A stretch of 64,000 nucleotides of DNA from positions 669-64,668 of the forward strand of contig JAGNUG010000005.1 in the NCBI GenBank assembly GCA_017987115.1, given 5' to 3'. This stretch comes from Flavobacteriales bacterium (GTDB lineage Bacteria > Bacteroidota > Bacteroidia > Flavobacteriales_F > PHOS-HE28). The position numbers and the translations under genes were made by a program. This document shows, one piece after another, positions 1,112 through 14,197 of this stretch (its first letter is position 1; every line of letters begins with the position of its first letter). The notes below the pieces were generated by a model. The model searched no databases. It was not told the origin of the DNA and saw only the letters and a program-made list of their open reading frames with translations.

Positions 1112-1128
1112 CGAAAAGAAATGAAAAC

Positions 1129-1214
1129 TACCTACAACAACACCTATCAAACAAAGCCGCACAAAGCCACTCGCAAGGCCTTGCTTCGTTTTATAGCTGT
1201 GGCCCGTTGTAGCC
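1129..1214 (+). repeat. Short attC-like site
   Basis: R'' TACCTACAAC (1129-1138) and R' GTTGTAG (1206-1212) are exact complements. R'' also matches the cassette start at 561-569. Confidence 0.7.
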
Positions 1215-1221
1215 AATTAGA

Positions 1222-1665
1222 ATGAAATACCTGTCCGTCTTACTTGTGCTCGTCATGATCACTTCTTGCTGCAACTGTGAGGATAAGAAGTACAATCCAA
1301 CCGGTATTGATCCATCCTCCATGTCTGAGAAAGAACTTTATTTGACCTATGGGCTTGAAGTTCCTGATGATTTTTACCTTATGCTCCAATCCCAGATTGA
1401 GAAGAAGGAAATTGGTATTGAGCTATACTGCGCACAACTTCAAATTGAAAATCAAGTCTCTCATCTGGTTAATGTTGCCATCCAAGTGGACTCTCTTGAA
1501 ATATTAACTGCATCCGTAACACGAAGTGATTACTCGAATAAGGTGAACAAATTGATTGAAAATATAGTTATCGGGCGTGAATGGACTTATGAGACCGAGA
1601 AACACAGTTCAGGAGATTTCGATTTTCGTTTGGACTTGCAGAAACTTTGCGTAATGAAAAGATAA
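1222..1665 (+). CDS. Hypothetical lipoprotein
   Basis: 147 aa with signal peptide and lipobox-like 'LVLVMITSCC'. AT-rich cassette ORF. Confidence 0.6.
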   Translation: MKYLSVLLVLVMITSCCNCEDKKYNPTGIDPSSMSEKELYLTYGLEVPDDFYLMLQSQIEKKEIGIELYCAQLQIENQVSHLVNVAIQVDSLEILTASVTRSDYSNKVNKLIENIVIGREWTYETEKHSSGDFDFRLDLQKLCVMKR

Positions 1666-1666
1666 C

Positions 1667-1792
1667 TGGTTACAACATGCTCTTGCCGCAAACAGCCCTC
1701 GTCCCGGTGCCAACTCCCGTTGAAGCATGATAACTTCGTCCAGGAACAAGATCACGAAAGGCGGCCTGCGGCAAGCGCAGGCCCGCTAGGGG
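1667..1792 (+). repeat. Class A attC-like site, copy 1 (~125 bp)
   Basis: TGGTTACAAC...GCCGCAAACAGCCC...GGCGGCCTGCGGCAAGCGCAGGCCC-GCTAGGG. R' is degenerate (GCT instead of GTT). R'' is complementary to the cassette start at 1207-1215 in 8 of 9 positions. Confidence 0.7.
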
Positions 1793-1810
1793 CAATTAAA
1801 AAAGACACAC

Positions 1811-2884
1811 ATGAGAAGAATAACAATTATACTACTGACCATGCTGACTATGACAGCATACGGACAGACCAACAAAGAAAAAGCCTACGACCTTGGCATG
1901 AAAGCCATAAAAGAAATGGATGCTGGCAAAATCAGGGACGCAATAAAATTATTGGAGCAATCCAAAGAACTCGACCCTGACAATATTGACTACCCATACG
2001 AAATAGCCTATGCCCACTACCTTGACAAAAGCTACACAGACGCTATCAAAATCCTAAAAGGATTGACTAAGCACGATAAAGTAAATGATCGAATCTACCA
2101 AATGCTTGGAAACTGTTACGACATGGAAAAAAATCCGGACAAGGCCATAGAGACTTATGAAACTGGACTAAAATTCTATCCAAATTCTGGCATACTCTAC
2201 TTGGAAAGGGGAAACATGGAGTTTGTCAAAGAGGACTATAACAAAGCCCTTGGTTATTACGAGCAAGGCATTGAAGTGCAGCCAAAATTTTCTTCCAACT
2301 ACTATTGGGCAGCCAAAATCTTCATGAGTTCAACAGAGGAAGTTTGGGGACTATTATATGGAGAAATTTTCATGAACCTTGAACGTAACAGCAACAGGAC
2401 TGCAGAAATCAGCGAGCTACTATACAACACCTATAAAAGCCAAATAACTTTTACATCGGATACTTCAATGACCGTTAGTTTTTGCCAGCAAATGACAATG
2501 AACATTAACGAAATCTCGGAGGACAGGGAAATGAAACTTCCCTTCTGCATGATTTACGAGCCTACTTTACTATTGTCTGTAGCTTTTGCCAAATCAATTG
2601 ACATCAAATCGTTAGACGATATTAGAACAAGTTTTGTAGAGAACTATTACAAGATGGGGCACAACAAAACTCATCCAAACGCTCTATTTGATTATCAAAA
2701 GCAAATCATGGACAATGGACATTTAGAAGCATATAATCACTGGATTCTGATGAAAGGAGACGAAGACGCTTTTTCTACTTGGAATGACAGTAACAAGGAC
2801 AAATGGGACAGCTTTGTAGCTTGGTTTTCTGAAAATCCCATTGAAATATCCGACACTAACAGATTTTACAGTGGACAGTATTAA
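1811..2884 (+). CDS. Secreted TPR-repeat protein
   Basis: 357 aa with N-terminal signal peptide 'ILLTMLTMTAYGQ'. Several 34-aa TPR-like units in the first ~170 aa (e.g. 'AIKLLEQSKELDPDN', 'AIETYETGLKFYPNS', 'ALGYYEQGIEVQPKF'). Confidence 0.75.
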   Translation: MRRITIILLTMLTMTAYGQTNKEKAYDLGMKAIKEMDAGKIRDAIKLLEQSKELDPDNIDYPYEIAYAHYLDKSYTDAIKILKGLTKHDKVNDRIYQMLGNCYDMEKNPDKAIETYETGLKFYPNSGILYLERGNMEFVKEDYNKALGYYEQGIEVQPKFSSNYYWAAKIFMSSTEEVWGLLYGEIFMNLERNSNRTAEISELLYNTYKSQITFTSDTSMTVSFCQQMTMNINEISEDREMKLPFCMIYEPTLLLSVAFAKSIDIKSLDDIRTSFVENYYKMGHNKTHPNALFDYQKQIMDNGHLEAYNHWILMKGDEDAFSTWNDSNKDKWDSFVAWFSENPIEISDTNRFYSGQY

Positions 2885-2900
2885 AAGAATGAAAAAACTG

Positions 2901-2963
2901 GCGCTAACAAAACCTATACGCAATACCCTTCGGGACACTGCTCTTAGCCAAATCGTTAGCAGC
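2901..2963 (+). repeat. Short attC-like site (~63 bp)
   Basis: GCGCTAAC (2901-2908) ... GTTAGCA (2955-2961). The same right arm recurs in the hybrid site at 9657-9710. Confidence 0.65.
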
Positions 2964-3011
2964 AATGTAAAACGAGAGGATTTTTGTACCTAGGAGATAA
3001 CACGAACTAAA

Positions 3012-3338
3012 TTGAACGAAAAGGAAAACACAAACTGGTTTGACGAACTGACTGAGATTTTCGGTTGGATTCAAATCATGTTTTCCCCTACTCTAGTTGG
3101 ACTTGCCCTCGGTGGACTTTACTACTTGTACTCGCCAGACACTATCGGCAAGATCTTAGGGTCTACGATTGCCATTATCGGACTTATCATTGGAATAATT
3201 TGGGCGACTAAAGTCAAGAAGAAATACGGTACAATTTGGTTCATTTCAAGAAACATGGCGACACCAGAATTAGACACCAGAAACGACTCTACCGAAAACA
3301 AGAAAGCAACTAAAAACACTGCTGCCAACAAAGGCTAA
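3012..3338 (+). CDS. Small membrane protein (2 predicted TM helices)
   Basis: 108 aa from a TTG start. An ATG at 3078 would cut into the first hydrophobic helix. Helices 'FSPTLVGLALGGLYYLY' and 'STIAIIGLIIGIIWA'. Confidence 0.5.
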   Translation: MNEKENTNWFDELTEIFGWIQIMFSPTLVGLALGGLYYLYSPDTIGKILGSTIAIIGLIIGIIWATKVKKKYGTIWFISRNMATPELDTRNDSTENKKATKNTAANKG

Positions 3339-3388
3339 ACCACATGCCTCCAACCGTTGCGCGTTGCTTTAGCCAGACCGTTGTATCC
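3333..3388 (+). repeat. Short attC-like site
   Basis: GGCTAAAC (3333-3340) overlaps the stop codon. Internal inverted repeat GGCTAAA/TTTAGCC. R' GTTGTAT at 3380-3386. Confidence 0.5.
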
Positions 3389-3431
3389 AATAACATCAAG
3401 CGGCCCCCCACCCCCTACTCCACCACCACCA

Positions 3432-4103
3432 TCACTGCCCCATTGCAGAGCGTAGCGTGTAAATGTTCATCGGGTACGGGCCACCAATTGCCGGTGGCAA
3501 AAGGCCGGTGGCGTCGGGTACGGGGGCAGTAGTGCGGTTCGCAGAGGTATACGGCCACTTTATCCAAGAGACGTAAGCACGGCGTAACGGGCCAAATGAC
3601 ACGAGCCTTACGTGGCAAGCAGTTAAGTGCGCAGCACTGGCCAGTGGCTGTTCGGTTGGTGGTTGAGGCTTCTTGGTTCTTGGCTTTTTGGCTTGTGGTA
3701 GTAGGGCCAAGGGTTCTGGGTAGCATTGGCGCAAGAGCTGGCAGCGCAGTGCATTGGGCAATGCAAAGGCCTGGAACTGTTCGGTAGGCAATAGGCGCAG
3801 GTAATGAGGTGTCAGGTAGTTGTCCTCCACATGCTTTTTCCAGCTTTTGAACGCTTTCACCAATTCATCCGCACGGGATTGCTGCCCCTTAGGCAAGGCG
3901 GTTAGTTGTGTACGCACCTTAGTTTCTTCCTGCAAGAGGATACGCCGCAATGCCTTGGCCAATGCACGGGGTGGCACCAGCCGGCCGGCGCGGGGTTCGC
4001 AATAGCACAGGAATACTTCGTTGAGGGTGACCGTGACCTGCACAGTTGCAACAGCTCGCTTGCGGCATGGCACTTCAATGCCTATGCTCGCGCTCCTACT
4101 CAT
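3432..4103 (-). CDS. Hypothetical protein (candidate iteron-binding initiator or regulator)
   Basis: 223-aa ORF in the high-GC cassette, divergent from the FN3 gene, with the iteron array immediately upstream. The first ~130 aa look protein-like. The C-terminal part is Pro/Lys-rich, so the true 3' extent is uncertain. No family recognised. Confidence 0.45.
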   Translation of the reverse strand: MSRSASIGIEVPCRKRAVATVQVTVTLNEVFLCYCEPRAGRLVPPRALAKALRRILLQEETKVRTQLTALPKGQQSRADELVKAFKSWKKHVEDNYLTPHYLRLLPTEQFQAFALPNALRCQLLRQCYPEPLALLPQAKKPRTKKPQPPTEQPLASAAHLTACHVRLVSFGPLRRAYVSWIKWPYTSANRTTAPVPDATGLLPPAIGGPYPMNIYTLRSAMGQ

Positions 4104-4269
4104 GGGTAGGGTCGTATTTGTTCAGGTATGTGCCTAAACCCAGTACCATGGGCAGATGCGCTCTACCGGTTGCTTCTGCTTCCTTGCGCGTGCGTACCAT
4201 ACACGCTCTGTTGTGCGTGGTATGGAACACACATTCGAAGATCTGGCTGCTATCTGGATCGGGTCTGCT

Positions 4270-4540
4270 TGGAACATGCGCGTGTTACCGGTCATCGTGC
4301 GCATGTTGCATCCTATCACGGGCATTTCTCCCGCTATCATGCGCATGTTAGCACCTAACACGGGCATTTCTCCGCCTATCATGCGCATGTTACATCTTGT
4401 CACGAGCAGTTCTCGGGCTATCATGCGCATGTTGGATCCTAACTCGGGCATTTCTCCGCCTATCACGCGCATGTTAGCGGCTATAACGGGCATATCTTGG
4501 GCTATTATGCGCATGATGGAATGTATAACGCGCATGTATT
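4270..4540. repeat. Iteron-like tandem array: about 6.5 units of 42 bp
   Basis: The palindrome ATGCGCAT (or ACGCGCAT/GTGCGCAT) sits at 4298, 4339, 4381, 4423, 4465 and 4507, exactly 42 bp apart, with half-period copies near 4276 and 4528. Each unit also carries CACGGGCATTTCTCC, and a further copy of that motif lies at 4604-4618. Confidence 0.85.
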
Positions 4541-4660
4541 GATATTTCTTGTGGGTGCCATTTGTTAAGACTTTGGTAGAACCCGAAAAAATAAACGTCC
4601 TGTTCACGGGCATTTCATGGGTTTATTAACAATATTCGTTTTTTTCACATGTCACGGCCA
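4541..4660. promoter_or_regulatory. AT-rich tract next to the iterons (candidate unwinding element or promoter region)
   Basis: gatatttcttg...gaaaaaataaacg...gtttattaacaatattcgtttttttcac is clearly AT-rich inside an otherwise ~58% GC cassette. Confidence 0.3.
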
Positions 4661-4757
4661 TACTCTTTGCGGTTAAAGTCCTTGGCCAGCAACACAGCCG
4701 AGGCCAGAGACAAACGGACGCACTCGAAGTCGAACGGAACCTAAACAACGAACAACC

Positions 4758-5375
4758 ATGAAACTGATCAAAGCAGGAACAAGCGGCTTAAATGCCGTGA
4801 GCCTCATCGCAAAGGCGGAGTACGTGGAAGGCAAGATGAAGACCAATCTGAACTTCGCCACCCCGAACCCGGCTATCACTGAGGTTACCGCTGCACGGGA
4901 AGCATTGGTAACGGCCGTAGCGCAAGCTGAAAGCCGTTCCTTCGCCGACCTCGCAGTACGCAACGCCCAGACCGTGGTCCTTCGCACCTTACTGGTGAAC
5001 CTTGCACGCTATGTGAATAACGTAGCCCTGGGTGATGTGGACAAGGCCGTGAGTAGCGGTTTTGAGCCGGCCAAAAAGCCGGAGCCCAGCACCCACTTGG
5101 ACCCACCGGTAAAACTAGAGGCGCGCGTAAGCGACTTCGAGGGTAGCGTGGACCTCTTGTGGAAGCGCGTGGAGGATGCCCGCATGTACCAGGTGTACAT
5201 CAACGACGGCGACCCATCGGATGCCACCAAGTGGTCGATGGTAGCTGTTAGCAGTCGCACGCGTACCCGCATTACGGATCTGGTACCGGGTAAGTTCTAC
5301 TCGTTCCGCGTAACCGCCCTCGGTCGTATCGGGGAAGGTCCCGCGAGCGATGTGGTAAGTGGCCGCGCCGCGTAA
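4758..5375 (+). CDS. Fibronectin type III domain protein (helical N-terminal half + C-terminal FN3)
   Basis: 205 aa. The C-terminus 'LLWKRVEDARMYQVYIND...TRITDLVPGKFYSFRVTALGRIGEGPAS' matches the FN3 pattern (W, Y-x-V, L-x-PG-x-Y-x-F-R-V-x-A). High GC. Its last ~110 nt and the 230 nt downstream are the master copy of the class B repeat core. Confidence 0.7.
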   Translation: MKLIKAGTSGLNAVSLIAKAEYVEGKMKTNLNFATPNPAITEVTAAREALVTAVAQAESRSFADLAVRNAQTVVLRTLLVNLARYVNNVALGDVDKAVSSGFEPAKKPEPSTHLDPPVKLEARVSDFEGSVDLLWKRVEDARMYQVYINDGDPSDATKWSMVAVSSRTRTRITDLVPGKFYSFRVTALGRIGEGPASDVVSGRAA

Positions 5376-5603
5376 GCGACCCCACAACTTCTTCTTCACT
5401 AGCATCCGCCCCGGTCCCGCAAAGGCCGGGGCGGGGTGCGTTAAGGGGTGCGTATGAACCGGTGAAGTATCTATCTTGGTGGGCCGGTTGTAATAAAACG
5501 CTATTGGGCTTTACATGCCCCACTAGTGAACTAGTAACCACTCCAAGCACGAACCAAGTCGGGAGATGAACGCTGCTGTTGTTACAACCGACTAGTTAGA
5601 ACA
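5262..5603 (+). repeat. Master copy of the class B repeat core (FN3 3' end + terminator + attC-like right arm)
   Basis: Near-identical to the right-hand ~340 bp of the full-length B copies (B3 shares only the first ~220 bp). Ends ...caaccgactaG|TTAGAAC (R' at 5595-5601). Confidence 0.85.
5406..5434 (+). terminator. GC-rich hairpin downstream of the FN3 gene (also present in every B copy)
   Basis: CCGCCCCGG (5406-5414) pairs with CCGGGGCGG (5426-5434): a perfect 9-bp stem with an 11-nt loop. No U-tract, so intrinsic-terminator function is inferred only. Confidence 0.5.
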
Positions 5604-5612
5604 AATTTTACA

Positions 5613-6263
5613 ATGGAGCAGAAAGTGAAAGAAGCAGTCGAGCTATTGCTGAATCCAAAATCAGCGAAACGTGAGTCGGGAGCAAAAAGACTTAGGAAGC
5701 TTGAATCGATTGAATCAGGTCCTTACCTGGTTCAAGCATTAGAAAAAGAGATTGCGGATGTTCGAACTTGGTCTACCCAATATCATCTTATCCTTGCTAT
5801 TGGTCATTCACAGTATGAAGCAGCTCTGCCATTTCTCATGAAACTTGCCAAAGAGAATTTTGAAGCAACAATTTTGTATTCTGGACTGGGTGATTCAATT
5901 TTTCGACTTCTAAGTATTAGTCATACTGTAGATGATTCGTTAGAACAAGTCTATGCCTTTGATAATTATATTTTGACGAAGGGGGCTTTTAGAGCCCTTG
6001 CTCTTCTACATATTGTCCCTGATGATAGTACTATTTCGGAACTATTAAACAAAGCTAGTGACCCAAGAGCTATTGAGGCTGTAAAAGGTTATCCCAATGA
6101 CCAAACTGGATTGAGGCTCTGGGTAGCGGCGGCAAGTGCTGGCTGGAGAGAGGAGTTAAAATCGAAATTCTTGGATGACTGCAGTACGATTCAGGACGGT
6201 CGATTGACGTTAGCCGTAGAAAATTCCAGAAAAGGAAAATATGTAAAGTGGGGACCATATTAA
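5613..6263 (+). CDS. HEAT/ARM-like repeat protein
   Basis: 216 aa. 'NPKSAKRESGAKRLRKLESIESGPYLVQALE' and later helical pairs resemble HEAT_2-type repeats. AT-rich cassette ORF. Confidence 0.55.
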   Translation: MEQKVKEAVELLLNPKSAKRESGAKRLRKLESIESGPYLVQALEKEIADVRTWSTQYHLILAIGHSQYEAALPFLMKLAKENFEATILYSGLGDSIFRLLSISHTVDDSLEQVYAFDNYILTKGAFRALALLHIVPDDSTISELLNKASDPRAIEAVKGYPNDQTGLRLWVAAASAGWREELKSKFLDDCSTIQDGRLTLAVENSRKGKYVKWGPY

Positions 6264-6270
6264 ATGTAAC

Positions 6271-6398
6271 TTGCTCTAACATACGTTTGCCACAAGCCAC
6301 CCTCGTCCCGGTGACAACTCCCGTTGAAGCGTTGAACACTTCGTTCAGGAACAAGATCACGAAAGGCGGCCTGCGGCAAGCGCAGGCCCGTTAGCGGC
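6271..6398 (+). repeat. Class A attC-like site, copy 2
   Basis: TTGCTCTAAC...GCCACAAGCCACCC...GGCGGCCTGCGGCAAGCGCAGGCCC-GTTAGCG. R'' is complementary to the cassette start at 5596-5604 in 8 of 9 positions. Confidence 0.8.
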
Positions 6399-6423
6399 AC
6401 GCTAAAAACGACAACATACAATC

Positions 6424-6870
6424 ATGGAACTATTTGAATTTCCACAAAAAACAACTTGGGAAAAAAGAAATGCTTGGATTGAAAATGAAATCGAACAGAG
6501 TATGACAGGTGGAAGTTATTTGGTAAGTGACCATTCAACGGCATTATTTGCAGACTTACAAGCTTGCTATTGCATAGGCGCTTGGATTTCAGTAATTGTC
6601 CTTTCAATATCAATTATTGATTCGCATTTACGCGAAACTGAAGCTTTAAATGTGAAAGTCGGAACAGCCAAATTATTGGATGATTATTACTTCGGTAAGG
6701 ATGATATTAATTGGCTCAGGAAACTCAGAAATCGGTATGTTCATGTTGACATTGATAATCCAGCTCTAGAAATGAACCACCAATACTTAAATAGAAAACA
6801 GTTAGAAAGTGATGCGACTAGAGCTGTGAAAATGATAATTCAAGCTTTCTTTCAAAGCCCAGGAACATAA
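6424..6870 (+). CDS. Hypothetical protein with a HEPN-like Rx4H motif
   Basis: 148 aa. 'NWLRKLRNRYVHVD' contains R-N-x-x-x-H, the signature of several HEPN families, in a predicted helical context. Motif-level evidence only. Confidence 0.5.
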   Translation: MELFEFPQKTTWEKRNAWIENEIEQSMTGGSYLVSDHSTALFADLQACYCIGAWISVIVLSISIIDSHLRETEALNVKVGTAKLLDDYYFGKDDINWLRKLRNRYVHVDIDNPALEMNHQYLNRKQLESDATRAVKMIIQAFFQSPGT

Positions 6871-6881
6871 AACATTAAAAA

Positions 6882-7094
6882 ATGAAATATAGAATTGACG
6901 AGATAAATATTGGAGATGAAGTGATTTTTGAATCGACCTCTATCCAGAGCAATTATGACTTATATTGGAAAGTTATCGGAAAGAATAAAACTCAATTGAT
7001 GATAGAACTTAAAGAAATGGGACACGATGAAAATTGGACAATCGAAATATTTGAAGTCAAAGGAGTTCTACCGACAGGAAGAAGTGAAAAATGA
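6882..7094 (+). CDS. Small hypothetical protein (second gene of a two-gene cassette)
   Basis: 70 aa. Starts 11 nt after the preceding stop and lies in the same cassette. Confidence 0.45.
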   Translation: MKYRIDEINIGDEVIFESTSIQSNYDLYWKVIGKNKTQLMIELKEMGHDENWTIEIFEVKGVLPTGRSEK

Positions 7095-7100
7095 AAGCCA

Positions 7101-7600
7101 GCCGCTAATCGAGTAGGCGGCCCCGCCGCTGAATAGCGACGGGGTGCGCCTCGCACACCACTGTACCCTTCGGCTTCGCTCTGGGTAAACCAAGCGGGTT
7201 TCGCAGACAGTGGTTCGTTGAGGTCTGGAGCTACGTTCTGGCAGTGATCTTACATGGCTTCGTACCCGCATTACGGATCTGGTACCGGGCAAGTTCTACT
7301 CGTTCCGCGTAACCGCCCTCGGCCGTATCGGGGAAGGTCCCGCGAGCGATGTGGTAAGTGGCCGCGCCGCGTAAGCGACCCCGCAACTTCTTCTTCACTA
7401 GCATCCGCCCCGGTCCCGCAAAGGCCGGGGCGGGGTGCGTTCAGGGGGTGCGTATGAACCGGTGAAGTATCTATCTTGGTGGGCCGGTTGTTATAAAGTG
7501 CTATTGGGCTTTACATGCCCCACTAGTGAAATACAAACAACCCCAAGCACGAATCAAGTCCGGAAATAAACCCTACTGTTGTTACAACTGACTACCTTTG
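7101..7600 (+). repeat. Class B composite attC-like repeat, copy B1 (~500 bp)
   Basis: Starts GCCGCTAAT-CGAGTAGG, with R'' complementary to the cassette start at 6391-6398. Hairpins at 7116-7150 and 7164-7187, FN3 fragment at 7222-7374, hairpin at 7405-7433, then the right arm. R' is degenerate (actaCCTTTGG). Confidence 0.85.
7222..7374 (+). pseudogene. Start-less FN3 C-terminal gene fragment inside B1
   Basis: 50 sense codons plus TAA, directly after a conserved in-frame TGA. The last 36 codons differ from the FN3 gene (5265-5375) only by two synonymous GGT>GGC changes. Confidence 0.7.
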
Positions 7601-7668
7601 GGACTAATATCACTGATAAAAAAATGAAAGAACAAAATCAATAACATCTTACCTAAACAGTAAACATT

Positions 7669-7839
7669 ATGAACAAAAGAAAAATATTATTGATAATTTT
7701 AATTATCCTAAATTCATTAGTGCTAATGGGACAAATTTATCCCGAAGGAGCTCCTCCATTTGCAAGAATTGTGAACATAGTTTTCCTAGTTTCAAGTTTG
7801 GCGTTTTTTATTGCAATGACAATACAAAAACGTACTTAG
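7669..7839 (+). CDS. Small membrane protein (56 aa, below the ORF-track cutoff)
   Basis: ATG at 7669, MNKRKILLIILIILNSLVLMGQ...VNIVFLVSSLAFFIAMTIQKRT, with two hydrophobic helices. It is the only plausible ORF in the cassette between B1 and B2. Confidence 0.35.
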   Translation: MNKRKILLIILIILNSLVLMGQIYPEGAPPFARIVNIVFLVSSLAFFIAMTIQKRT

Positions 7840-7854
7840 ACAACAAGCCAGAAA

Positions 7855-8358
7855 TGCCAATCGAGTAGGCGGCCCCGCCGCTGAATAGCGAAGGGGTGCG
7901 CCTTTCACACCACTGTACCCTTCGGCTTCGCTCTGGGTAAACCAAGCGGGTCTCGTATACAGCGGTTCGTTAAGGTGTGGAGCTATTTTCTGGTAGTGAT
8001 CGAGCATGGCTTCGTAGCTGCATAACGGATCTGGTACCGGGCAAGTTCTACTCGTTCCGCGTAACCGCCCTCGGTCGTATCGGGGAAGCTTACACTGCGA
8101 GCGATGTGGTAAGTGGCCGCGCCGCGTAAGCGACCCCACAACTTCTTCTTCACTAGCATCCGCCCCGGTCCCGCAAAGGCCGGGGCGGGGTGCGTTAAGG
8201 GGCTGCGTGCGAACCAGTGAAGTATCTATCTTGGTGGGCCGGTTGTAATAAAGTGCTATTGGGCTTTACATACCCCAATAGTGAAATAGTAACCACTCCA
8301 AGCACACACCAAGTCCGGAAATAAACCCTACTGTTGTTACAACCGACTAGTTAGCGGC
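7855..8358 (+). repeat. Class B composite repeat, copy B2
   Basis: Starts TGCCAAT-CGAGTAGG and ends actaG|TTAGCGG (8350-8356). Variant with a TAA stop and a 3-nt in-frame insertion in the FN3 fragment. Confidence 0.85.
7974..8129 (+). pseudogene. Start-less FN3 C-terminal fragment inside B2
   Basis: 51 codons plus TAA. GP>AYT in-frame insertion, T>S, R>C, and synonymous changes. Confidence 0.65.
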
Positions 8359-8359
8359 A

Positions 8360-9268
8360 ATGCAAATGAGGACAAGCGTAGCCATATTGATACAGTTCCT
8401 GACGGTAGGCCTCGCCACTTCGCAGAACGACAAGACCAGTGAGCGAGAAACGCAGATCTTGAAAGACAATCGAGTAGCCATTAAGAGGACGTGGTCAACG
8501 ATCTACCAAGACAACGACAACGAGATTCAGATAGATAGAAATCTCCAGTTGTATGAACAGTTCGATAGGAATGGAAACATCATTCTTCGACTTCGATTCA
8601 ATAACGTCGGCGACACTTTAGAAAAGAACACGTTTGTCCGTAATGACAAAGGACAAGTATTCCGTGAGTATCGAGACTGCCTTGACACTTGCCTAGTTTG
8701 GTATTGGGAAAGCTCGTATGATCAAGGTAAACTTGACAATGCGACTGCATTCTCGAGAGACAGTTCTGTTGTCGCTTCTTCAAAATATTTCTACAATGAA
8801 CAGGGCCTTGTTTCGAAATATTACTCGAGCAGACGAGAGGAGACTGTGGTTTCGACTAGCCTTGACGATGGCCGTAGCGGAGATCCAATCACAAATTATC
8901 ACACCATATACGAGACAGATTACGATACTACAATTGTTGAATATTCAGGAGACACAATACGACACTCGTCAAATCATGAGTCACAATCTTCGCTTTATAC
9001 TGAGAAGTACAACGAGGATGGCTTCATGTTGGAAGAGTCAGCGCTGTATAATTCGAAACTTTTGAATTATACGGAACGTTATGAGTATGATAGCTTTGGG
9101 AACAGGGTAATTAGGCTTATAACCAGTAGCAATATGAATGAGCCATACTTAATGGAAAAGTATATCTACGATGCGCGTCATCTTATGGTGAAAATGGAAT
9201 ACTATCACACCAAATTGGATATACCTCAGGTGATTTCAGAATTCGAATATGAACTTTTGGACGAATAG
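8360..9268 (+). CDS. Secreted protein with YD/MORN-like short repeats
   Basis: 302 aa with signal peptide 'AILIQFLTVGLATSQ'. Recurrent 'Y-x-Y-D/N-x-x-G' units ('YFYNEQGLV', 'YEYDSFGNRV', 'EKYNEDGFM'). Confidence 0.6.
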   Translation: MQMRTSVAILIQFLTVGLATSQNDKTSERETQILKDNRVAIKRTWSTIYQDNDNEIQIDRNLQLYEQFDRNGNIILRLRFNNVGDTLEKNTFVRNDKGQVFREYRDCLDTCLVWYWESSYDQGKLDNATAFSRDSSVVASSKYFYNEQGLVSKYYSSRREETVVSTSLDDGRSGDPITNYHTIYETDYDTTIVEYSGDTIRHSSNHESQSSLYTEKYNEDGFMLEESALYNSKLLNYTERYEYDSFGNRVIRLITSSNMNEPYLMEKYIYDARHLMVKMEYYHTKLDIPQVISEFEYELLDE

Positions 9269-9276
9269 AACGCACT

Positions 9277-9710
9277 GCCGCTAATCGAGTAGGCGGCCCC
9301 GCCACTGAATAGCGACGGGGTGCGCCTCTCACACCACTGTACCCTTCGGCTTCGCTCTGGGTAAACCAAGCGGGTCTCTTATACAGCGGTTCGTTGAGGT
9401 GTTGAGCTGCTTTTAGGTAGTGATCGAGCATGGCTTCGTACCCGCGTCACGGATCTGGTACCGGGCAAGTTCTACTCGTTCCGCGTAACCGCCCTCGGTC
9501 GTATCGGGGAAGGTCCCGCGAGCGATGTGGTAAGTGGCCGTGCCGCGTAAGCGACCACGCAACTTCTTCTTCACTAGCATCCGCCCCGGCCCCCCAAAGG
9601 CCGGGGCGGGGTGCGTTTAGGGGCTGCGTGTGAACCGCTGAAGTATCTATCTTGGTGAACCTATACGCAATGCCCTTGGGGACACTGCGCATAGCCGAAA
9701 CGTTAGCGTG
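9277..9710 (+). repeat. Hybrid site B3: class B left part joined to the right arm of a short attC
   Basis: B-type sequence up to ...gaagtatctatcttggtg (9656), then aacctatacgcaatgcccttggggacactgcgc...cGTTAGCG, which is homologous to 2910-2961. R'' GCCGCTAA (9277-9284) is complementary to the cassette start at 8351-8358. Confidence 0.8.
9398..9550 (+). pseudogene. Start-less FN3 C-terminal fragment inside B3
   Basis: 50 codons plus TAA. I>V plus two synonymous changes in the conserved part. Confidence 0.65.
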
Positions 9711-9719
9711 CATGGCAAA

Positions 9720-10250
9720 ATGACGACAAGTGATTACAATATGTCTGACACCGACAACCAATTAGTCCTGACAATCAAGAGAAAACCAAACTGGCTCATT
9801 CTCTCTATTACTGGTTTGTGGACACTTGGCTGGCTCGGTATTACTGGGACAATTATTTACGGACTTGCGACCGACCCTGACAAACTTGACGGTGAAATTG
9901 CTCTTTTTATGACTTTCTTTTTTCTCGCTGGACTATTTGTACTCAAAATTTTCCTTTGGCATTTAAGAGGACAAGAAAAAATTACAATTGACGACAAAGA
10001 ATTTCGCATAGACAAAGTTGGGACTATCCTGACAATTCCGAGAAAATATGAAGTTGACCAAATCGACTACATTTCAAATACAGAAAGACCAACAACACCG
10101 AAATGGATAAAATTTTGGGGGCTTGGAGGCGGACAAATTGAATTTGTATACCTAGGACAGACTAAGTATTTCGGACAGACATTAAAAGTTAAGGAGGCGA
10201 CTAAAATAATTGATGAAATGAAAGAAAAATTAAAAGCCACGACACGCTGA
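9720..10250 (+). CDS. Membrane protein (2 TM helices)
   Basis: 176 aa from the first ATG (the ORF opens at GTG 9708). Helices 'WLILSITGLWTLGWLGITGTIIYGL' and 'IALFMTFFFLAGLFVLKIFLW'. Confidence 0.55.
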   Translation: MTTSDYNMSDTDNQLVLTIKRKPNWLILSITGLWTLGWLGITGTIIYGLATDPDKLDGEIALFMTFFFLAGLFVLKIFLWHLRGQEKITIDDKEFRIDKVGTILTIPRKYEVDQIDYISNTERPTTPKWIKFWGLGGGQIEFVYLGQTKYFGQTLKVKEATKIIDEMKEKLKATTR

Positions 10251-10745
10251 TCGAGTAGGCGGCCCCGCCGCTGAATAGCGACGGGGTGCGCCTCTCACAC
10301 CACTGTACCCTTCGGCTTCGCTCTGGGTAAACCAAGCGGGTCCCGCATACAACGGTTCGTTGAGGTCTGGAGCTACTTTCTGGTAGTGAATGCACACGGC
10401 TTCGTACCCGCATTACGGATCTGGTACCGGGCAAGTTCTACTCGTTCCGCGTAACCGCCCTCGGCCGTATCGGGGAAGGTCCCGCGAGTGATGTGGTGAG
10501 TGGCCGCGCCGCGTAAGCGACCACGCAACTTCTTCTTCACCAGCATCCGACCCGGTCCCACAAAGGCCGGGGCGGGGTGTGTTCAGGGGCTGCGTATGAA
10601 CCGGTGAAGTTTCTATCTTGGTGAGCCGGTTGATATAAAACGCTATTGGGCTTTACATGCCCCATTAGTGAACTAGAAACCACCCCAAGCACCAACCAAG
10701 TCCGGAAATAAACTCTACTGTTGTTACAACCGACTAGTTAGTGGT
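10243..10745 (+). repeat. Class B composite repeat, copy B4
   Basis: Starts CACGCTGAT-CGAGTAGG, complementary to the cassette start 9703-9710 (TTAGCGTG) in 7 of 8 positions. R'' overlaps the stop codon. Ends actaG|TTAGTGG. Confidence 0.85.
10364..10516 (+). pseudogene. Start-less FN3 C-terminal fragment inside B4
   Basis: 50 codons plus TAA. All four differences in the conserved 36 codons are synonymous (GGC, GGC, AGT, GTG). Confidence 0.65.
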
Positions 10746-10763
10746 AAGCGGATAACGAGCTAA

Positions 10764-11204
10764 ATGAAAAGACTATTCGAAATACTTCTATTTACTGTTA
10801 CCCTAGTTTCTTGTTCGGACAATGGAAAGGAAAATGGAGAATCAGGTACTTCTAAATATTACATGGACGATCCTGTAGAAATGATTAAAATCAGTGAACA
10901 TAAAGACCTTATTGGGTCAGAAGTTAGAATGGTCGGTGATATGTCGTCAGATAACGTAGAGCAGCTTCAGGACTCGTGTTCTAAAATTTTCATTAGTAGA
11001 AAGACAAGCGACGAAGTATTGAGTATCATAAGCTACTTCGGCCGAAGTGGTTGCACTAACTATCAAGCAAATATTGACATTCGTGGAGATTCGTTAGTTC
11101 TTCTCTTAGAAAACACAACTAACCTTGTATGCGCAGAGCGAGAATACTATAGGGTCACCTACCATGTAAATACGTCTGGTAAGAATTATATAATAACAAA
11201 ATAA
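10764..11204 (+). CDS. Hypothetical lipoprotein
   Basis: 146 aa with lipobox 'FTVTLVSCSDNG'. Confidence 0.6.
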   Translation: MKRLFEILLFTVTLVSCSDNGKENGESGTSKYYMDDPVEMIKISEHKDLIGSEVRMVGDMSSDNVEQLQDSCSKIFISRKTSDEVLSIISYFGRSGCTNYQANIDIRGDSLVLLLENTTNLVCAEREYYRVTYHVNTSGKNYIITK

Positions 11205-11209
11205 AGCCT

Positions 11210-11336
11210 ACCACTAACATGCTCCTGCCGCAAGCCGCCCTCGTCCCATTGACAACTCCCGTTGAAGCGATGAACACTTCGTCCAGGAACAAGATCACGA
11301 AAGGCGGCTTGCGGCAAGCGCAGGCCCGTTGTAGCG
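11210..11336 (+). repeat. Class A attC-like site, copy 3
   Basis: ACCACTAAC-atgctcct-GCCGCAAGCCGCC...GGCGGCTTGCGGC-aagcgcaggccc-GTTGTAG, with a 13-bp perfect inner stem. R'' is exactly complementary to the cassette start at 10738-10745. Confidence 0.85.
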
Positions 11337-11368
11337 CATGCAAACACTTATAGATCCGCTCCGAAGGA

Positions 11369-11629
11369 ATGTTCTTGATTGAAGATAATTTTCACGCTGC
11401 CCCACAGGGCAAGTTCTCGAGCTTTGAAGAAGCGCTGAAAGAACTAAGTATCAGAGCAAAAATTCCATTTGGAGAAGGTGTCAACAAATGCCCATGCACG
11501 AACTGGAGAAACTGCCAGCGAGAATATCACATTATTGAGTATGATGACTCAAAGCTCCCGTGGAAAGAGCTTACCCGCCAAGCGATTCTGACCATTACAC
11601 AAGACGGAGTAGAATGGAAAATGAATTAA
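11369..11629 (+). CDS. Hypothetical protein
   Basis: 86-aa ATG ORF, sole ORF of its cassette. Confidence 0.5.
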   Translation: MFLIEDNFHAAPQGKFSSFEEALKELSIRAKIPFGEGVNKCPCTNWRNCQREYHIIEYDDSKLPWKELTRQAILTITQDGVEWKMN

Positions 11630-11634
11630 GCACG

Positions 11635-11722
11635 TGCTATAACAACGGCTACACGCAACGGCCTCCCCTCACACCAAGACCAGCGCACAATAGGCGCTGC
11701 GCGTAGCCCAACCGTTAGCGGC
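11635..11722 (+). repeat. Short attC-like site
   Basis: TGCTATAAC (11635-11643) ... GTTAGCG (11714-11720). Only partial complementarity to the cassette start at 11329-11338. Confidence 0.55.
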
Positions 11723-11735
11723 AATTGAATAAATT

Positions 11736-12062
11736 ATGAGACATACCATATTCACATTTCTAATTACACTGATCCCACTATCAGTAACTGCCCAGTCTGG
11801 AAAAAGCATTGATTGGAAAATGGTTCAAGTCTATGAATTCACGGCCCGTGAATCATACCCTGATTCATTGAAAACATGTGGTGGTGAATGGCTTGTAAAG
11901 GGAAGCGCCAATAGCCTCAGCGAACTAGGCACAATTGAATTGAGAAGAATAAAGAAGAAGGTTGCTAAGTATGGGTGTAAGATAGTTTATGTTGACACAA
12001 GGAAGGTTTACCCACTTAGAAATGGAAAACTATATATTCTTGGGTTAAAGGCAAAGGATTAA
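11736..12062 (+). CDS. Secreted hypothetical protein
   Basis: 108 aa with signal peptide 'IFTFLITLIPLSVTAQ'. Confidence 0.55.
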   Translation: MRHTIFTFLITLIPLSVTAQSGKSIDWKMVQVYEFTARESYPDSLKTCGGEWLVKGSANSLSELGTIELRRIKKKVAKYGCKIVYVDTRKVYPLRNGKLYILGLKAKD

Positions 12063-12083
12063 ACATTGAGACGGTTTACAACT

Positions 12084-12210
12084 ACCGCCAACATGCTCTT
12101 GCCGCAAGCCGCACTCGGCCCATTGCCAACTCCCGTTGAAGCGATGATAACTTCGTCCAGGAACAAGGTCAAGAAAGGCGGACTGCGGCACGCGCAGGAC
12201 CGTTCTAAGC
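12084..12210 (+). repeat. Class A attC-like site, copy 4
   Basis: ACCGCCAAC-atgctctt-GCCGCAAGCCGCAC...GGCGGACTGCGGCACGCGCAGGACC-GTTCTAA. Confidence 0.75.
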
Positions 12211-12217
12211 AAGCAAA

Positions 12218-12841
12218 ATGAACCAAGTCGTAATAAAATTCATTTCCGAAATAGTAAAACCTTGGGAGACGTTGAACCAAGAATTGAGCAGACCTTTTTC
12301 AATGAATCCAGAGGTAAATGATTATGTGACTAAGGCAATTGCTATTGCGGTTGCACTTAAGCATTTTCCCGAGTCAACAAAAAAAATAAAACCAGAGACT
12401 TTAGTTCCCGATTCTTTGGACTATTCAATTATTTCTGACTTAGCTGATTCCGCGAAACATGGTGAATTAAGAAAACCTGAAAGAGAATGCAAACTGACAG
12501 TATCATGTATGTTTGAAAAAAATCAGGATCCGAAAGTGCGATTTCTAAGAAGTAGAATATCAATAACGCATAACACTCACGGGAAAATAGACTTTATGCA
12601 ATGTGCAATGAATAGCGCACTTTTTGTAATGCAAAAAACTGATATAAGAACTGATTGGTCACCCAAATTAATAAACAACCAAGGCGAGTTCTCAGATGAA
12701 ATTAAAGTACATGCGAGTAAAAGCAACCAAATAGTTTGGACTGGAATGTCACTTGAAATTGTGCAACTGAACGACAAGAATGAATACGAGAATGTTGACT
12801 TAAACGGGACTGTGAGGTTTACTTTGACATCGGAATTCTAA
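12218..12841 (+). CDS. Hypothetical protein
   Basis: 207-aa ATG ORF. No recognisable motif and no signal peptide. Confidence 0.55.
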   Translation: MNQVVIKFISEIVKPWETLNQELSRPFSMNPEVNDYVTKAIAIAVALKHFPESTKKIKPETLVPDSLDYSIISDLADSAKHGELRKPERECKLTVSCMFEKNQDPKVRFLRSRISITHNTHGKIDFMQCAMNSALFVMQKTDIRTDWSPKLINNQGEFSDEIKVHASKSNQIVWTGMSLEIVQLNDKNEYENVDLNGTVRFTLTSEF

Positions 12842-12846
12842 TGCCT

Positions 12847-13350
12847 GCTTATAATCGAGTAGGCGGCCCCACCGCTAAAATTTCAACGGGGTGCGCCTCG
12901 CACACCACTGTACCCCGCGTCTTCGCTCGGGGCAGGCCAAGCGGGTCCCGCAGACAGCGGTTCGTTGATGTGTGGAGCTACGTTCTGGTAGTGATCGTGC
13001 CTGGCTTCACACCCGCATTACGGATCTGGTACCGGGCAAGTTCTACTCGTTCCGCGTAACCGCCCTCGGTCGTATCGGGGAAGGTCCCGCGAGCGATGTG
13101 GTAAGTGGCCGTGCCGCGTAAGCGACCACGCAACTTCTTCTTCACTAGCATCCGCCCCGGTCCCATAAAGGCCGGGGCGGGGTGCGTTAAGGGGGTGCGT
13201 GTGAACCAGTGAAGTATCTATCTTGGTGGGCCGGTTGTAATAAAACGCTATTGGGCTTTACATGCCCCACTAGTGAACTAGTAACCACTCCAAGCACGAA
13301 CCAAGTCGGGAGATGAATGCTACTGTTGTTACAACCGACTGGTTGGCGCT
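12847..13350 (+). repeat. Class B composite repeat, copy B5
   Basis: Starts GCTTATAAT-CGAGTAGG, complementary to the cassette start 12203-12210 (TTCTAAGC) in 7 of 8 positions. Hairpin-2 variant TACCCCG...CGGGGCA (12911-12934). Ends actgG|TTGGCGC. Confidence 0.85.
12969..13121 (+). pseudogene. Start-less FN3 C-terminal fragment inside B5
   Basis: 50 codons plus TAA. The conserved part differs only by synonymous GGC and CGT. Confidence 0.65.
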
Positions 13351-13363
13351 AATTTGAAATAAT

Positions 13364-14197
13364 ATGAAAGCATTTGTGATAATGCCCTTCTCTGAAGAAT
13401 TCGATGACGTATTTCGAATTGGAATAAAAGAGACTGCGGAAAAAGAAGATGTTAAAGCCTATCGACTTGATGAAGAACTATTTGACGAAGGAATGCTCGA
13501 CAAAATTTATTCTGAAATTGAATCAGCGGACTTTATCATAGCAGATCTATCAAACCGAAACTCAAATGTTTTTTATGAACTCGGCTATGCACATGCAATG
13601 GGTAAACTTTGCATACTAATTACTGAATCTGCAGAGAATATTCCTTTTGACCTTAAGCACAGACGGCACATAGTTTATGGAGGTAAACTCACATATTTAC
13701 AGGAACAACTCCAATCAAACATTAAATGGGCAAAAAATGAAATTGAAGCTCAAAAGCACAATCCGTTTCAAATCGAATTGAAATCTGACGGCAACCTAGA
13801 ATCAACTGATGAATATGCACAAGCAAACATTGATTTCCTGATTGATATTGAGAATAAATCCAATCGAGTCTCACCGGAGATTCAAGGAATCTACATTCAT
13901 TCAGCGAAGCAGTGGAAAATCAAGCAACATGGGAAAAACGTTCCTTCAAAAAAATCTGATTTGAAACCATATAGCTATAAGTACAGTCTTTCATTTGAGA
14001 CGGCAAAAATTCCCAGAAAAGGTTTTACCCAACTAGAATTGACAACTTCTCGAGTTTTAGCATATGCCTTTGATGGGGGTGAAATAAAGGATAGTTATAC
14101 AATACAAGGCAGTCTCTTTATCGAAGTAGTTACTGATAAAGGATCGTATTCAAATAAATTTCCAATTTCAGTATATATGGATACACTTCCATTCTAA
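13364..14197 (+). CDS. TIR-like / nucleoside 2-deoxyribosyltransferase-like Rossmannoid domain protein with an unknown C-terminal domain
   Basis: 277 aa. The N-terminal ~110 aa read 'FVIMPFSEEFDDVF...SADFIIADLSNRNSNVFYELGYAHAMGKLCILI...IPFDLKHRRHIVY', a pattern I recognise from bacterial TIR-like/NDT-like domains with a conserved Glu in YELG. The C-terminal ~150 aa are unassigned. Confidence 0.55.
   Translation: MKAFVIMPFSEEFDDVFRIGIKETAEKEDVKAYRLDEELFDEGMLDKIYSEIESADFIIADLSNRNSNVFYELGYAHAMGKLCILITESAENIPFDLKHRRHIVYGGKLTYLQEQLQSNIKWAKNEIEAQKHNPFQIELKSDGNLESTDEYAQANIDFLIDIENKSNRVSPEIQGIYIHSAKQWKIKQHGKNVPSKKSDLKPYSYKYSLSFETAKIPRKGFTQLELTTSRVLAYAFDGGEIKDSYTIQGSLFIEVVTDKGSYSNKFPISVYMDTLPF

Follow-up and report, generated by a model that had tools for sequence, protein, structure and literature searches.

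The window analysed here, a stretch of 64,000 nucleotides from a Flavobacteriales genome, raises the question of how fragments of a gene that have no consistent start come to vary among themselves as coding sequence does. The fragments recur in every copy of a long repeat (B) and correspond to the 3' end of an intact upstream gene with an FN3 domain, the master. The original prediction offered three explanations, namely that they were copied from several functional FN3 alleles, that they serve as silent donors in the manner of pilS, or that they are expressed in some unexpected way. Its observation is partly confirmed, and its interpretation partly supported, by the analysis of the repeat, its substitutions and its relation to the master.

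Anatomy of the array and of its composite repeats

The master FN3 gene (4758..5375, on the forward strand like all features below) encodes a protein of 205 aa in which a three-helix domain at the N-terminus is followed by an FN3 domain at the C-terminus (Pfam fn3 match at 1.2e-07). Its AlphaFold model has a pLDDT of 94 and matches to FN3 folds, and its 72 homologues range from 41 to 100% in identity. The last 37 codons, 169-205 (5262-5375), show a dN/dS of 0-0.12 against orthologues, and are the source and the partner of the B-borne tails. Downstream lie a 3'UTR with a GC hairpin (5376-5493), recognized from alignments with the B copies, and an attI-like module, Z (5494-5595), which ends GACTAG|TT; the hairpin was not called in a terminator scan and has no T-run.

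Each B repeat is about 505 nt long and consists, in order, of an R'' half-site, an intron stump (X), the FN3 tail, the 3'UTR hairpin, an attI-like Z and R', with the crossover site GACTAG|TT (R') at the end of Z. The tail, UTR and Z together form a block of 345 nt (block H) common to the intact FN3 gene and every B copy. Seven copies lie in the window and an eighth outside it (contig C51:4944-5436). B1 (7100..7595) comprises the R'' half (7100-7107), X (7108-7260), the FN3 tail (7261-7374), the UTR with hairpin (7375-7493), Z (7494-7595) and a degenerate R'. B2 (7852..8350) has X at 7860-8012, a tail at 8013-8129 with T>S, R>C and GP>AYT, the UTR at 8130-8248 and Z at 8249-8350, after which G|TTAGCGGCA follows. 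In B3 (9276..9702), X (9284-9436) is followed by a tail with I>V (9437-9550) and a UTR from 9551, and Z is replaced from ~9657 by the right arm of a short attC resembling the site at 2911-2960. B4 (10242..10737) contains X at 10250-10402, the tail at 10403-10516, the UTR at 10517-10635 and Z at 10636-10737. B5 (12846..13342; X 12854-13007, UTR 13122-13240) and B6 (14208..14703; X 14216-14368, UTR 14483-14601) both have R>H in their tails (13008-13121 and 14369-14482), and the Z variant of B5 (13241-13342) is that of the master, while the Z of B6 spans 14602-14703. Finally, B7 (18307..18805) has X at 18315-18467, a tail with T>S and GP>AYT at 18468-18584, the UTR at 18585-18703 and Z at 18704-18805, followed by G|TTGTCAGTA.

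Module X is, as judged from its sequence, a group IIC-attC-type intron remnant: the last ~153-165 nt of a 5'-truncated group II intron of predicted IIC-attC type, in which some of domain IV with the RT C-terminus and the downstream ribozyme end survive. In reverse complement, the left part of B aligns nucleotide by nucleotide to the 3' termini of full-length group II introns from relatives (L036, L037, L038), which encode RVT_1 and GIIM proteins and score 115-120 bits against Rfam RF02001. In tblastn searches, reverse-transcriptase residues 412-456 are matched at 70-82% in all eight B copies, and the genome yields no intact RT or intron. Rfam gave no family match in the window at the gathering threshold and none for 7000-11000 at E<=1, so X is too short or too diverged for the domain V/VI model. 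The left boundary of X (...CTCGAT|) is the exact intron 3' end and adjoins eight different R'' half-sites. X is thus inserted on the bottom strand, exactly at R'' and opposite to cassette transcription, as it is on contig L057 of a related strain; bottom-strand insertion between a gene and its attC is known for group IIC-attC introns (PMC3001079, PMC7923331). Both the truncation point and the intron/FN3 junction are identical in all eight copies. The joint lies at a 9-nt microhomology, CGTA(C/G)CCGC, and falls within the reading frame of the RT and within FN3 codon 169, not at the intron boundary or the hairpin.

The repeats belong to an integron-type cassette array (459..21330) of low-GC single ORFs with three types of site: short, A (~130 nt) and B (~505 nt). 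Cassettes begin with the remainder of R' (G|TTnnnnnnn) and end with its reverse complement (R''), the mean complementarity of R' and R'' over 17 cassettes being 8.35 of 10 positions against a null of 5.5 +/- 0.2 (maximum 6.3 in 2000 trials). On contigs L049 and L051, GACTAG|TT is followed by different first cassettes. GC content is mostly 0.33-0.45 in the cassette stretches, compared with 0.49-0.63 for the B repeats and ~0.45-0.57 for the chromosome on either side. A Pfam match is lacking for most cassette proteins. Orthologues of two cassette proteins were absent from 60 relatives, apart from one distant N-terminal match (36% over 109 residues, in G058). Many cassette products are small lipoprotein-like or repeat proteins.

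Ahead of the array lies the C-terminal stump of an integrase (354-458), detected by tblastn with a relative's integrase and ending in YTHVSTKALGKIRSPWEALDL and a stop, with a Z module directly after it (459-570) as the head of the upstream array. The integrase stumps before Z in this genome are 22-35 aa long. No intact array integrase was found, a PF00589 search of the genome returning only two Xer-like genes on other contigs; the array integrase is lost from this genome, which makes the array CALIN-like. In relatives, Z directly follows a co-directional recombinase gene and precedes the cassettes. This recombinase scores 231.6 against NF040815 (cut-off 220) and 212 against TIGR02249 (cut-off 265), with profile positions 180-237 of the latter replaced by ~18 residues; among the 60 relatives no classical integron integrase (TIGR02249) reaches the cut-off.

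Typically, attC sites are ~60-140 nt long and fold as imperfect single-strand hairpins. The short site at 1128-1220 does form a hairpin (z=-4.5) and the A sites form an inner stem; the bottom strand of B (519 nt) has a z of -1.4 and no end-to-end hairpin. On balance, the FN3 fragment in B appears to be neither a gene nor a dedicated donor cassette, but a module of a composite attC-like site. This composite recombination site, with the fragment as one of its modules, had been missed in the original prediction.

The start-less frame and its substitution pattern

As had been claimed, all seven window copies contain a frame that stays open for 50 codons (51 in B2 and B7) up to a TAA; in B1 it spans 7222..7374. 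It is directly preceded by an in-frame stop (TGA in B1, B3, B4, B5 and B6; TAA in B2 and B7), which lies in intron-derived sequence. A consistent start is likewise absent, as reported: there is no ATG, and codon 2 is GTG in B2, B5 and B7, CTG in B1, B4 and B6, and GTT in B3, whose first candidate start is a CTG at codon 4. The claim that the whole frame is homologous to FN3 holds for 7261-7374 (37 codons and the stop, corresponding to master 5262-5375) but fails for the 13 codons at 7222-7260, which correspond in reverse complement to a group II intron 3' end. Within the interior of the repeat, variation is indeed highest in these upstream codons (pairwise 0.18 vs 0.03-0.09 in the tail), but they derive from the intron and are not FN3 sequence.

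The reported list of synonymous and replacement differences shows the right pattern with a corrected count: the seven window copies and the master differ by eight synonymous changes and four replacements (T>S, R>C, I>V and R>H, the last having been overlooked), together with GP>AYT, a single complex in-frame change (GGTCCC>GCTTACACT) in B2 and B7. The asserted absence of stops is true of the window but not of the genome, since the C51 copy has an in-frame AAG>TAG, which cuts the frame to 23 residues, and additionally V>L at the invariant residue V185. With this copy included, the eight B copies and the master differ by 10 synonymous, 5 replacement and 1 nonsense point changes.

Although the sample is small (15-16 point changes in total), the claim that the tails evolve like coding sequence is borne out by a synonymous excess at P=0.005-0.016 when mutations are placed randomly by class (transition, transversion, CpG). 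Seven of nine core changes fall at third positions (P=0.008; P=0.004 for the window alone). Relative to the flank rate, a neutral reference that recombination with divergent intron or attI copies may have raised, replacement sites are depleted 3-12 fold (6 observed, 17-28 expected; P=0.002 to 7e-7) and synonymous sites change as expected (9 observed vs 6.5-10.6). Correspondingly, pS (0.106) equals the neutral divergence of the flanks, pN is 0.014 and pN/pS is ~0.13. Four of the five replacements are clustered within the first four codons of the tail, at the edge of the homology with the master, where the chance of exchange is lowest; outside these codons, the peptides of the window copies are identical to the master's, except for GP>AYT. 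When only changes absent from the present master are counted, the ratio is 5 synonymous to 2 replacement (roughly P=0.04, a hand estimate). The antisense frame, as had also been argued, is codon-aligned and open, yet the changes read there are mostly replacements (12 N, 3 S). The RT relic provides an internal control in the same repeat: ~100 nt from the FN3 tail it has no coding-like pattern (10 S, 41 N, 1 stop; P=0.86) and has evolved neutrally. The absence of a synonymous bias in its frame also led us to reject import from functional introns as the source of the variation in X. A diversity-generating retroelement was rejected as well, since the genome lacks an intact RT, the relic belongs to the group II type and adenine bias is absent. 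The tail differences are mostly C/T and A/G at wobble sites and are not A-specific.

These numbers bear on the view that the tails are inert relics, i.e., dead passengers whose third-position pattern is a small-sample accident and whose limited divergence stems from a function in the recombination site or in the processing of transcripts (e.g., protein binding or folding near the hairpin). Sequence with no coding function is also conserved nearby, as diversity is 0.072 in the UTR with its hairpin beside the tail and 0.056-0.073 in the 60 nt of X closest to R'', compared with 0.11 for X and Z. Further, the phase signal comes from only nine core changes and six frames could have been tested, and three events struck positions that are fixed or seldom altered in the protein family (G194/P195, V185 and K>stop). 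Nonetheless, we regard this reading as unlikely: the depletion is confined to replacement sites, with synonymous sites at the flank rate, the phase test is significant with and without the copy outside the window, the RT relic 100 nt away lacks the pattern, and the whole B strand folds no better than its shuffles. Part of the conservation could still reflect a role at the level of DNA.

Translation of the frame as a mini-protein, starting from GTG or CTG at codon 2 and selected as a peptide, might equally be thought to explain a pN/pS of this order, a frame that stays open in seven copies and a GTG or CTG at codon 2 in seven of the eight copies (the C51 copy counted). However, no start is common to all copies, the GTT of B3 and the poor initiation at CTG speaking against it; the first 13 residues would be encoded by the most variable part of the repeat, which is intron antisense; and in the AlphaFold model the tail-encoded part makes up only strands E-F-G of the seven-strand FN3 fold. 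The stop upstream is intron-derived and one copy is cut to 23 residues. Among 5.8 billion proteins there were no homologous small ORFs, a 50-aa query matching only C-terminal pieces of true FN3 genes. Expression of the fragment, one of the three explanations first offered, is thus highly improbable.

Origin of the repeat and exchange with the intact gene

The distribution of variants across the 345-nt block points to recombination as the source of the gene-like pattern. In a four-gamete test, 250 of 435 informative site pairs across tail, UTR and Z are incompatible (PHI-like P=0.005), and the resulting mosaic includes the master. The master has minor alleles in common with B1 and B2 in the UTR and with B2 and B5 in Z, and at tail site 62 it and five B copies have a derived T where the orthologues have C. 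Both the nonsense change and the change at V185 are on the C51 copy, off the master's contig.

Of the explanations first proposed, an origin from several functional FN3 alleles comes closest to the data, given the shared block, its mosaic with the master and its silent divergence at the neutral rate. Its literal form, in which each tail was copied independently from a different allele, was rejected since all eight copies have one junction and one truncation point; any exchange must postdate a single founding fusion. This fusion would have made the B unit, probably from a precursor with the order FN3, hairpin, Z, cassette and R''|intron. Such an order persists in a related strain, on contig L057, where the first cassette ends TGGCTATA|ATCGAGTAGG, corresponding to R''|X, and L049, L051, L052 and L057 alike have FN3, hairpin and Z followed by different cassettes after GACTAG|TT. 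From there, B would have spread onto eight different cassettes by a route that we can only infer.

The 345-nt block also forms the end of the intact FN3 gene, so that gene and B copies act as a single recombining family. We therefore lean towards the view that the tails are not translated and serve as homology arms or are mere passengers, their gene-like character being maintained through homologous exchange with functional FN3 alleles. This exchange could proceed by gene conversion, by unequal crossing-over or by RecA-driven excision and integration of cassettes via the homology of the block. A sequence which spent part of its ancestry as the 3' end of an expressed gene, here or in close strains, would have been subject to purifying selection during that time, and this ancestry would leave tails with silent divergence at the neutral rate and very few replacements. 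As conversion from the resident master alone cannot yield a synonymous bias, the model needs either other functional alleles as donors or selection via B-to-master transfers, neither of which was directly observed. B-type junctions were absent from the other genomes and metagenome contigs searched, and exact-pattern scans of metagenome and genome contig collections with the tail core gave 0 matches; exchange across strains is accordingly proposed rather than seen.

The same mosaicism might be taken to favour programmed silent donors of the pilS kind, with the B tails as alternative FN3 C-termini that vary strands E-F-G and the FG loop. Eight start-less partial copies in direct orientation share 345 nt with an expressed gene upstream, recombination takes in the master, and the in-frame GP>AYT lies after strand F, in a loop region that often mediates binding by FN3 domains; second-order selection via B-to-master transfer could, moreover, keep tails translatable in very large populations. 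Mechanically, the comparison is apt to a weak degree, in that incomplete silent copies undergo recombination with an expressed gene, but it fails for a store of diversity. Nearly all variation among the donors is synonymous, and the one larger change replaces a glycine (G194) that is invariant in 35 homologues and a proline (P195) kept in at least 90% of them, so that GP>AYT looks like damage and not a usable allele. Fragments of the B type are also lacking beside orthologous FN3 genes elsewhere, and a single fusion with an intron stump accounts for the tail as its by-product. We consider a programmed donor role very unlikely.

Scarcely more probable is an extension of the exchange model in which the lineage, after the loss of its integrase, shuffles and captures cassettes by RecA-type recombination, with the 345-nt block as a portable landing pad. 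Each integration or excision at the master would then exchange its expressed C-terminus for the copy carried by a cassette; the silent tails would stay translatable under second-order selection, and variants like the GP>AYT loop would occasionally be tried.

Relation to known systems and significance

The repeat is best compared with several known arrangements, each of which it resembles in part. Like group IIC-attC introns, X is on the bottom strand at R'', between the cassette ORF and the rest of the site, and as in the truncated introns of CALINs (PMC3001079, PMC7923331) only the 3' end survives. As with these introns, the 3' end of a gene and a hairpin are physically joined to site sequence near the intron; unlike them, the joint in B is an illegitimate fusion in the RT frame and FN3 codon 169, and the stump, gene tail and attI-like module went on to recur as a site on eight cassettes. 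The sedentary chromosomal integrons and the CALINs, with their homogeneous families of VCR-like sites, share the co-directional, low-GC, single-gene cassettes, the inverse-core/core complementarity that shows circular cassette intermediates, species-specific families of near-identical sites and arrays left behind by integrase loss. They differ in that the relatives' recombinase here has the same direction as the cassettes and no IntI-specific insert, and in that B is ~505 nt long with no single-hairpin fold. The inverse R''/R' with crossover at G|TT of the classical integron is found, but an IntI with its additional domain beside attI is not.

As described (Ross et al., bioRxiv 10.1101/471110), the rAID-1 arrays of Bacteroidales resemble the present system, as seen in its relatives, in the 5' co-directional XerD-like recombinase, the at least two low-GC co-directional genes downstream and the repetitive intergenic sequences, whereas the host here is an environmental Flavobacteriales lineage. 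The rAID-1 recombinases are delimited by at least 44% identity to B. fragilis BF9343_RS08045 and their cassettes are immunity genes, and the passages considered make no mention of gene-tail or intron modules in rAID repeats. The B copies and the pilS loci both are promoter-less, start-less partial copies of an expressed gene with evidence of recombination, but the former carry almost no amino-acid diversity and are parts of the recombination sites of mobile cassettes. Conversion between pseudogenes and genes similarly gives non-expressed fragments a dN/dS <1 through exchange with a selected copy, and orphan Rhs/CDI toxin modules use short conserved stretches as recombination arms. Unlike in these cases of concerted evolution and Rhs-CDI arms, the arm in B is a 3' end instead of a conserved 5' core and lies within a site of site-specific recombination.

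As it stands, the B repeat is a neat variant of known processes and not a new kind of system. It counsels caution over a dN/dS far below 1 in untranslatable fragments, as recombination with a selected gene can make dead DNA look coding. There is no agreement on the origin of integron cassettes and of their attC sites, and group IIC-attC introns are the main proposed matchmaker between gene and site; in B, an intron stump, 37 codons with a hairpin and an attI-like sequence are welded into one site on eight cassettes. If the landing-pad view were true, B would be a natural fossil of an intron welding the 3' end and terminator of a gene to an integron site, and would bear on the unsolved origin of cassettes. 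Likewise, were the exchange with the master frequent and directional, it would amount to homology-driven movement of cassettes without an integrase.

Cassette array and loss of the integrase

The genome is of Flavobacteriales type (3.7 Mb, 202 contigs), and from ~459 to 21330 the window (C17:669-64668) carries co-directional small low-GC ORFs with higher-GC repeats in between. The 5' ends of these cassettes are core-site remainders (e.g., G|TTAGCGGCA and G|TTGTCAGTA) and their 3' ends are the reverse complement of the same cassette's 5' remainder (e.g., TGCCGCTAA and TACTGACAAC), with a mean match of 8.35/10 for 17 cassettes versus 5.5 +/- 0.2 for random 10-mers scanned at the same places. This complementarity is the trace left by circular cassettes that recombined at G|TT, and the array is of integron type. 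Its sites comprise short hairpins (that at 1128-1220 folds with z=-4.5), an A family of ~130 nt and a B family of ~505 nt, the latter with seven copies in the window (B1-B7). The B3 copy lacks the attI-like module Z; in its place, from ~9657, stands a right arm taken from a different short site, with 88% identity to 2911-2960. Such a right end (9657-9707) records recombination between site types. The array closes with a minimal site (21305-21330, TGCCGCTAAC-ATTAT-GTTGTAG), in which the R''/R' spacing is only 5 nt, directly 3' of a PAD_porph cassette (20020-21303; 427 aa, agmatine/peptidyl-arginine deiminase-like), and a second minimal site is found at 16254-16273. The product of the cassette at 13364-14197 has a weak N-terminal nucleoside 2-deoxyribosyltransferase/TIR-like match (PF05014, 2.3e-05, below cut-off) and an unknown C-terminal half; the one relative that matches it aligns over 109 N-terminal residues at 36% identity.

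No integrase adjoins the arrays of this genome, the only two Xer-like genes lie on other contigs, and no intact integrase of the family represented by the stumps is left in it. What persists are C-terminal stumps of 22-35 residues, starting near the catalytic Tyr (..YTHVSTKALGKIRSP..), each directly 5' of a ~110-nt Z; such stumps with Z lie at 354-570 in the window (stump 354-458, Z 459-570), C51:11717-11903 and C195:20829-21001, whereas a weak stump-like match (C30:4143-4211, E=0.14) has no Z alongside. In relatives, a co-directional 392-aa recombinase of a very large family is followed at once by Z and then by cassettes. It exceeds the cut-off of NF040815 ('site-specific tyrosine recombinase/integron integrase'; 231.6 versus 220) and falls below that of TIGR02249 (212 versus 265) because it lacks the IntI-specific insert. 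In these features the system is similar both to CALINs and to the rAID-1 arrays known from Bacteroidales (10.1101/471110). In the related-strain contig L049, the stump runs into a Z-like end, the joint being GACTAG|GTAGCACC; this looks like removal of the recombinase gene by its own product via a core-like site (caT GTT AGT Acc) within the gene's 3' end.

Modular anatomy of the B repeat

The B repeat is modular, its positions 6-170, 159-274 and 399-495 matching separately in searches of relatives. Positions 1-170 (X) are the reverse complement of a group II intron 3' end and align base for base to full-length introns of relatives, which have Rfam D1-D4 matches of 115-120 bits and proteins with RVT_1 and GIIM. 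X, which in the intron sense ends ...CCTACTCGAT, adjoins eight different R'' half-sites, a placement exactly like that of group IIC-attC introns, which lie in attC sites on the bottom strand, between a gene and its site (PMC3001079, PMC7923331). The truncation point, RT residue ~412, is common to all eight stumps, and the genome contains no intact intron or RT. At the junction, intron CGTAGCCGC meets FN3 CGTACCCGC; past it, B consists of the last 37 codons and stop of FN3 (the tail), the FN3 3'UTR with a GC hairpin, and Z, ending in GACTAG|TT. The intact FN3 gene (4758-5375; the master) has the same UTR and Z downstream, and therefore shares a 345-nt block with B. Just left of the junction, a hypervariable patch of 6-10 nt (TGATCGAGCA / TGAATGCACA / TGATCTTACA / TGAATGCATT ...), within 7190-7260 and equivalents (alignment columns 141-170), far exceeds the remaining X in variability. 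Further, B5 and B6 carry clustered X changes, partly matching another intron lineage (L038-type), which may be compensatory.

The start-less frame originally predicted at 7222-7374 in B1 indeed recurs in the six other window copies, with 50 codons (51 in B2 and B7) and a TAA end, after a TGA in five copies and a TAA in two; none of the seven frames has an ATG, and codon 2 is GTG in B2, B5 and B7, CTG in B1, B4 and B6, and neither in B3. Its homology to FN3 was confirmed for the last 37 codons and stop, but the junction position means that, upstream of these, both the variable codons and the conserved in-frame stop come from the antisense of the intron, not from FN3. Likewise, the frame is free of stops in the window copies but not in an eighth B copy, recovered on contig C51 by whole-genome search, where AAG>TAG cuts it. 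An AlphaFold model of the FN3 protein (pLDDT 94) has a three-helix domain and a seven-strand FN3 domain, of which the fragment is predicted to supply only strands E, F and G. Given such a partial fold, the absence of a start common to all copies, and first 13 residues more variable than any other part of the repeat, the earlier suggestion that the fragment is expressed as a peptide is highly improbable.

Coding-like evolution and exchange with the intact gene

Across the tails of the eight B copies and the master (111 sense bases), 16 point changes comprise ten synonymous, five replacement and one nonsense, in addition to a complex in-frame change common to B2 and B7. When CpG transitions, other transitions and transversions were distributed at random in their observed numbers, a synonymous count equal to or above the real one had a probability of 0.012 for all copies, 0.016 for the window only and 0.005-0.008 for codons 5-37; the only other frame scoring equally is an antisense one with the same wobble positions, which contains a stop. 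Pooled pairwise pS and pN are 0.106 and 0.014 (ratio 0.13), true orthologues giving 0-0.12 over the same codons. Additionally, at the minimum mutations per site of X (0.35), UTR (0.21) and Z (0.31), 17-28 replacement and 6.5-10.6 synonymous changes are expected in the tail, against 6 and 9 observed; codons 5-37 hold two replacement-type changes, one being the nonsense and both belonging to the C51 copy, versus 15-25 expected (P=3e-5 to 5e-9). The internal control, a 44-codon RT relic in X, has 10 synonymous and 41 nonsynonymous changes and one stop (P=0.86). Hence, the signal is real and specific to the FN3 frame rather than a property of the whole repeat, and the coding-like evolution is quantitatively stronger than the original prediction could show. 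Constraint at the DNA level, or chance, is a rather unlikely source of this pattern. The proposed alternative of programmed donors, a pilS-like store of useful variants, is distinctly doubtful: beyond the first four codons, translation of each of the seven window copies would give the peptide of the master, save for GP>AYT, which replaces G194, a residue shared by all 35 homologues, and P195, present in at least 90% of them.

The data do show recombination within the tail-UTR-Z block, the master included. Of the 435 informative site pairs, 250 fail the four-gamete test, and compatibility is higher between nearby sites than between sites far apart (P=0.005). As part of the mosaic, the master has UTR alleles that recur in B1/B2 and Z alleles that recur in B2/B5, and at tail site 62 it carries, with five B copies, a derived T where orthologues have C. 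We therefore lean towards viewing the coding-like evolution as a side effect of sequence exchange with intact FN3: on this simplest account, the block and the functional gene would form one recombining family across this strain and closely related ones, and surviving tail variation would thus have been screened during service as the gene's 3' end. Four of the five tail replacements lie within 12 nt of the homology boundary, which fits such a family since transfer there needs absent homology, as does the location of the decayed copy on a different contig (C51). The bias among tail changes specific to B (5 synonymous to 2 nonsynonymous; P~0.04, hand estimate) cannot be accounted for with the present master as the sole source of conversion; it would need other functional alleles as donors, or B-to-master transfers exposing tails to selection.

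Origin of the composite site

A related strain with 84% nucleotide identity (L057:934-1733, a Logan contig) has the order FN3 - hairpin - Z - G|TTATAGCCA - cassette ORF - TGGCTATA|ATCGAGTAGG..., with R''|X at the contig end and the break inside X. The FN3-Z adjacency is kept across this divergence of about 16%, and the arrangement probably represents the precursor of the B unit before fusion. In this order, the two 9-mers of the junction form direct repeats flanking the segment tail-UTR-Z-ORF-R''-X. We infer that a single event between these microhomologous repeats, either unequal exchange or excision, could have produced a cassette that ends in B without disrupting FN3, and that B would later have spread by recombination of X with intron copies resident in other sites. 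No further B-type copy was detected in the scanned collections (genome and metagenome contigs, proteins). Three other related contigs (L049, L051, L052) have FN3 - hairpin - Z-like - integrase stump - Z, with differing first cassettes.

Two FN3 paralogues of the same length (29-30% identity) are present in this genome, at C144:84551-85171 and C195:17014-17631, the latter 3.2 kb from another integrase stump and Z. Upstream of FN3 are a divergent ORF of ~200 aa (3432-4103, minus strand) and a 42-nt unit repeated in tandem five to six times (4294-4521). The ORF and FN3 are kept as a pair in relatives (L040-L052), flanked by variable genes with HamA, PemK, GIY-YIG and HNH matches; no family matches beyond fn3 were found in either protein.

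Thus the pattern originally observed stands in part, but not its attribution: the fragment belongs, as a module, to a composite site of integron type that combines an intron stump, a gene tail with its hairpin, and attI-like sequence. The kinds of element and process behind B are already known, namely group IIC-attC introns in attC sites, CALINs and concerted evolution, and the finding bears mainly on the origin and spread of cassette sites.
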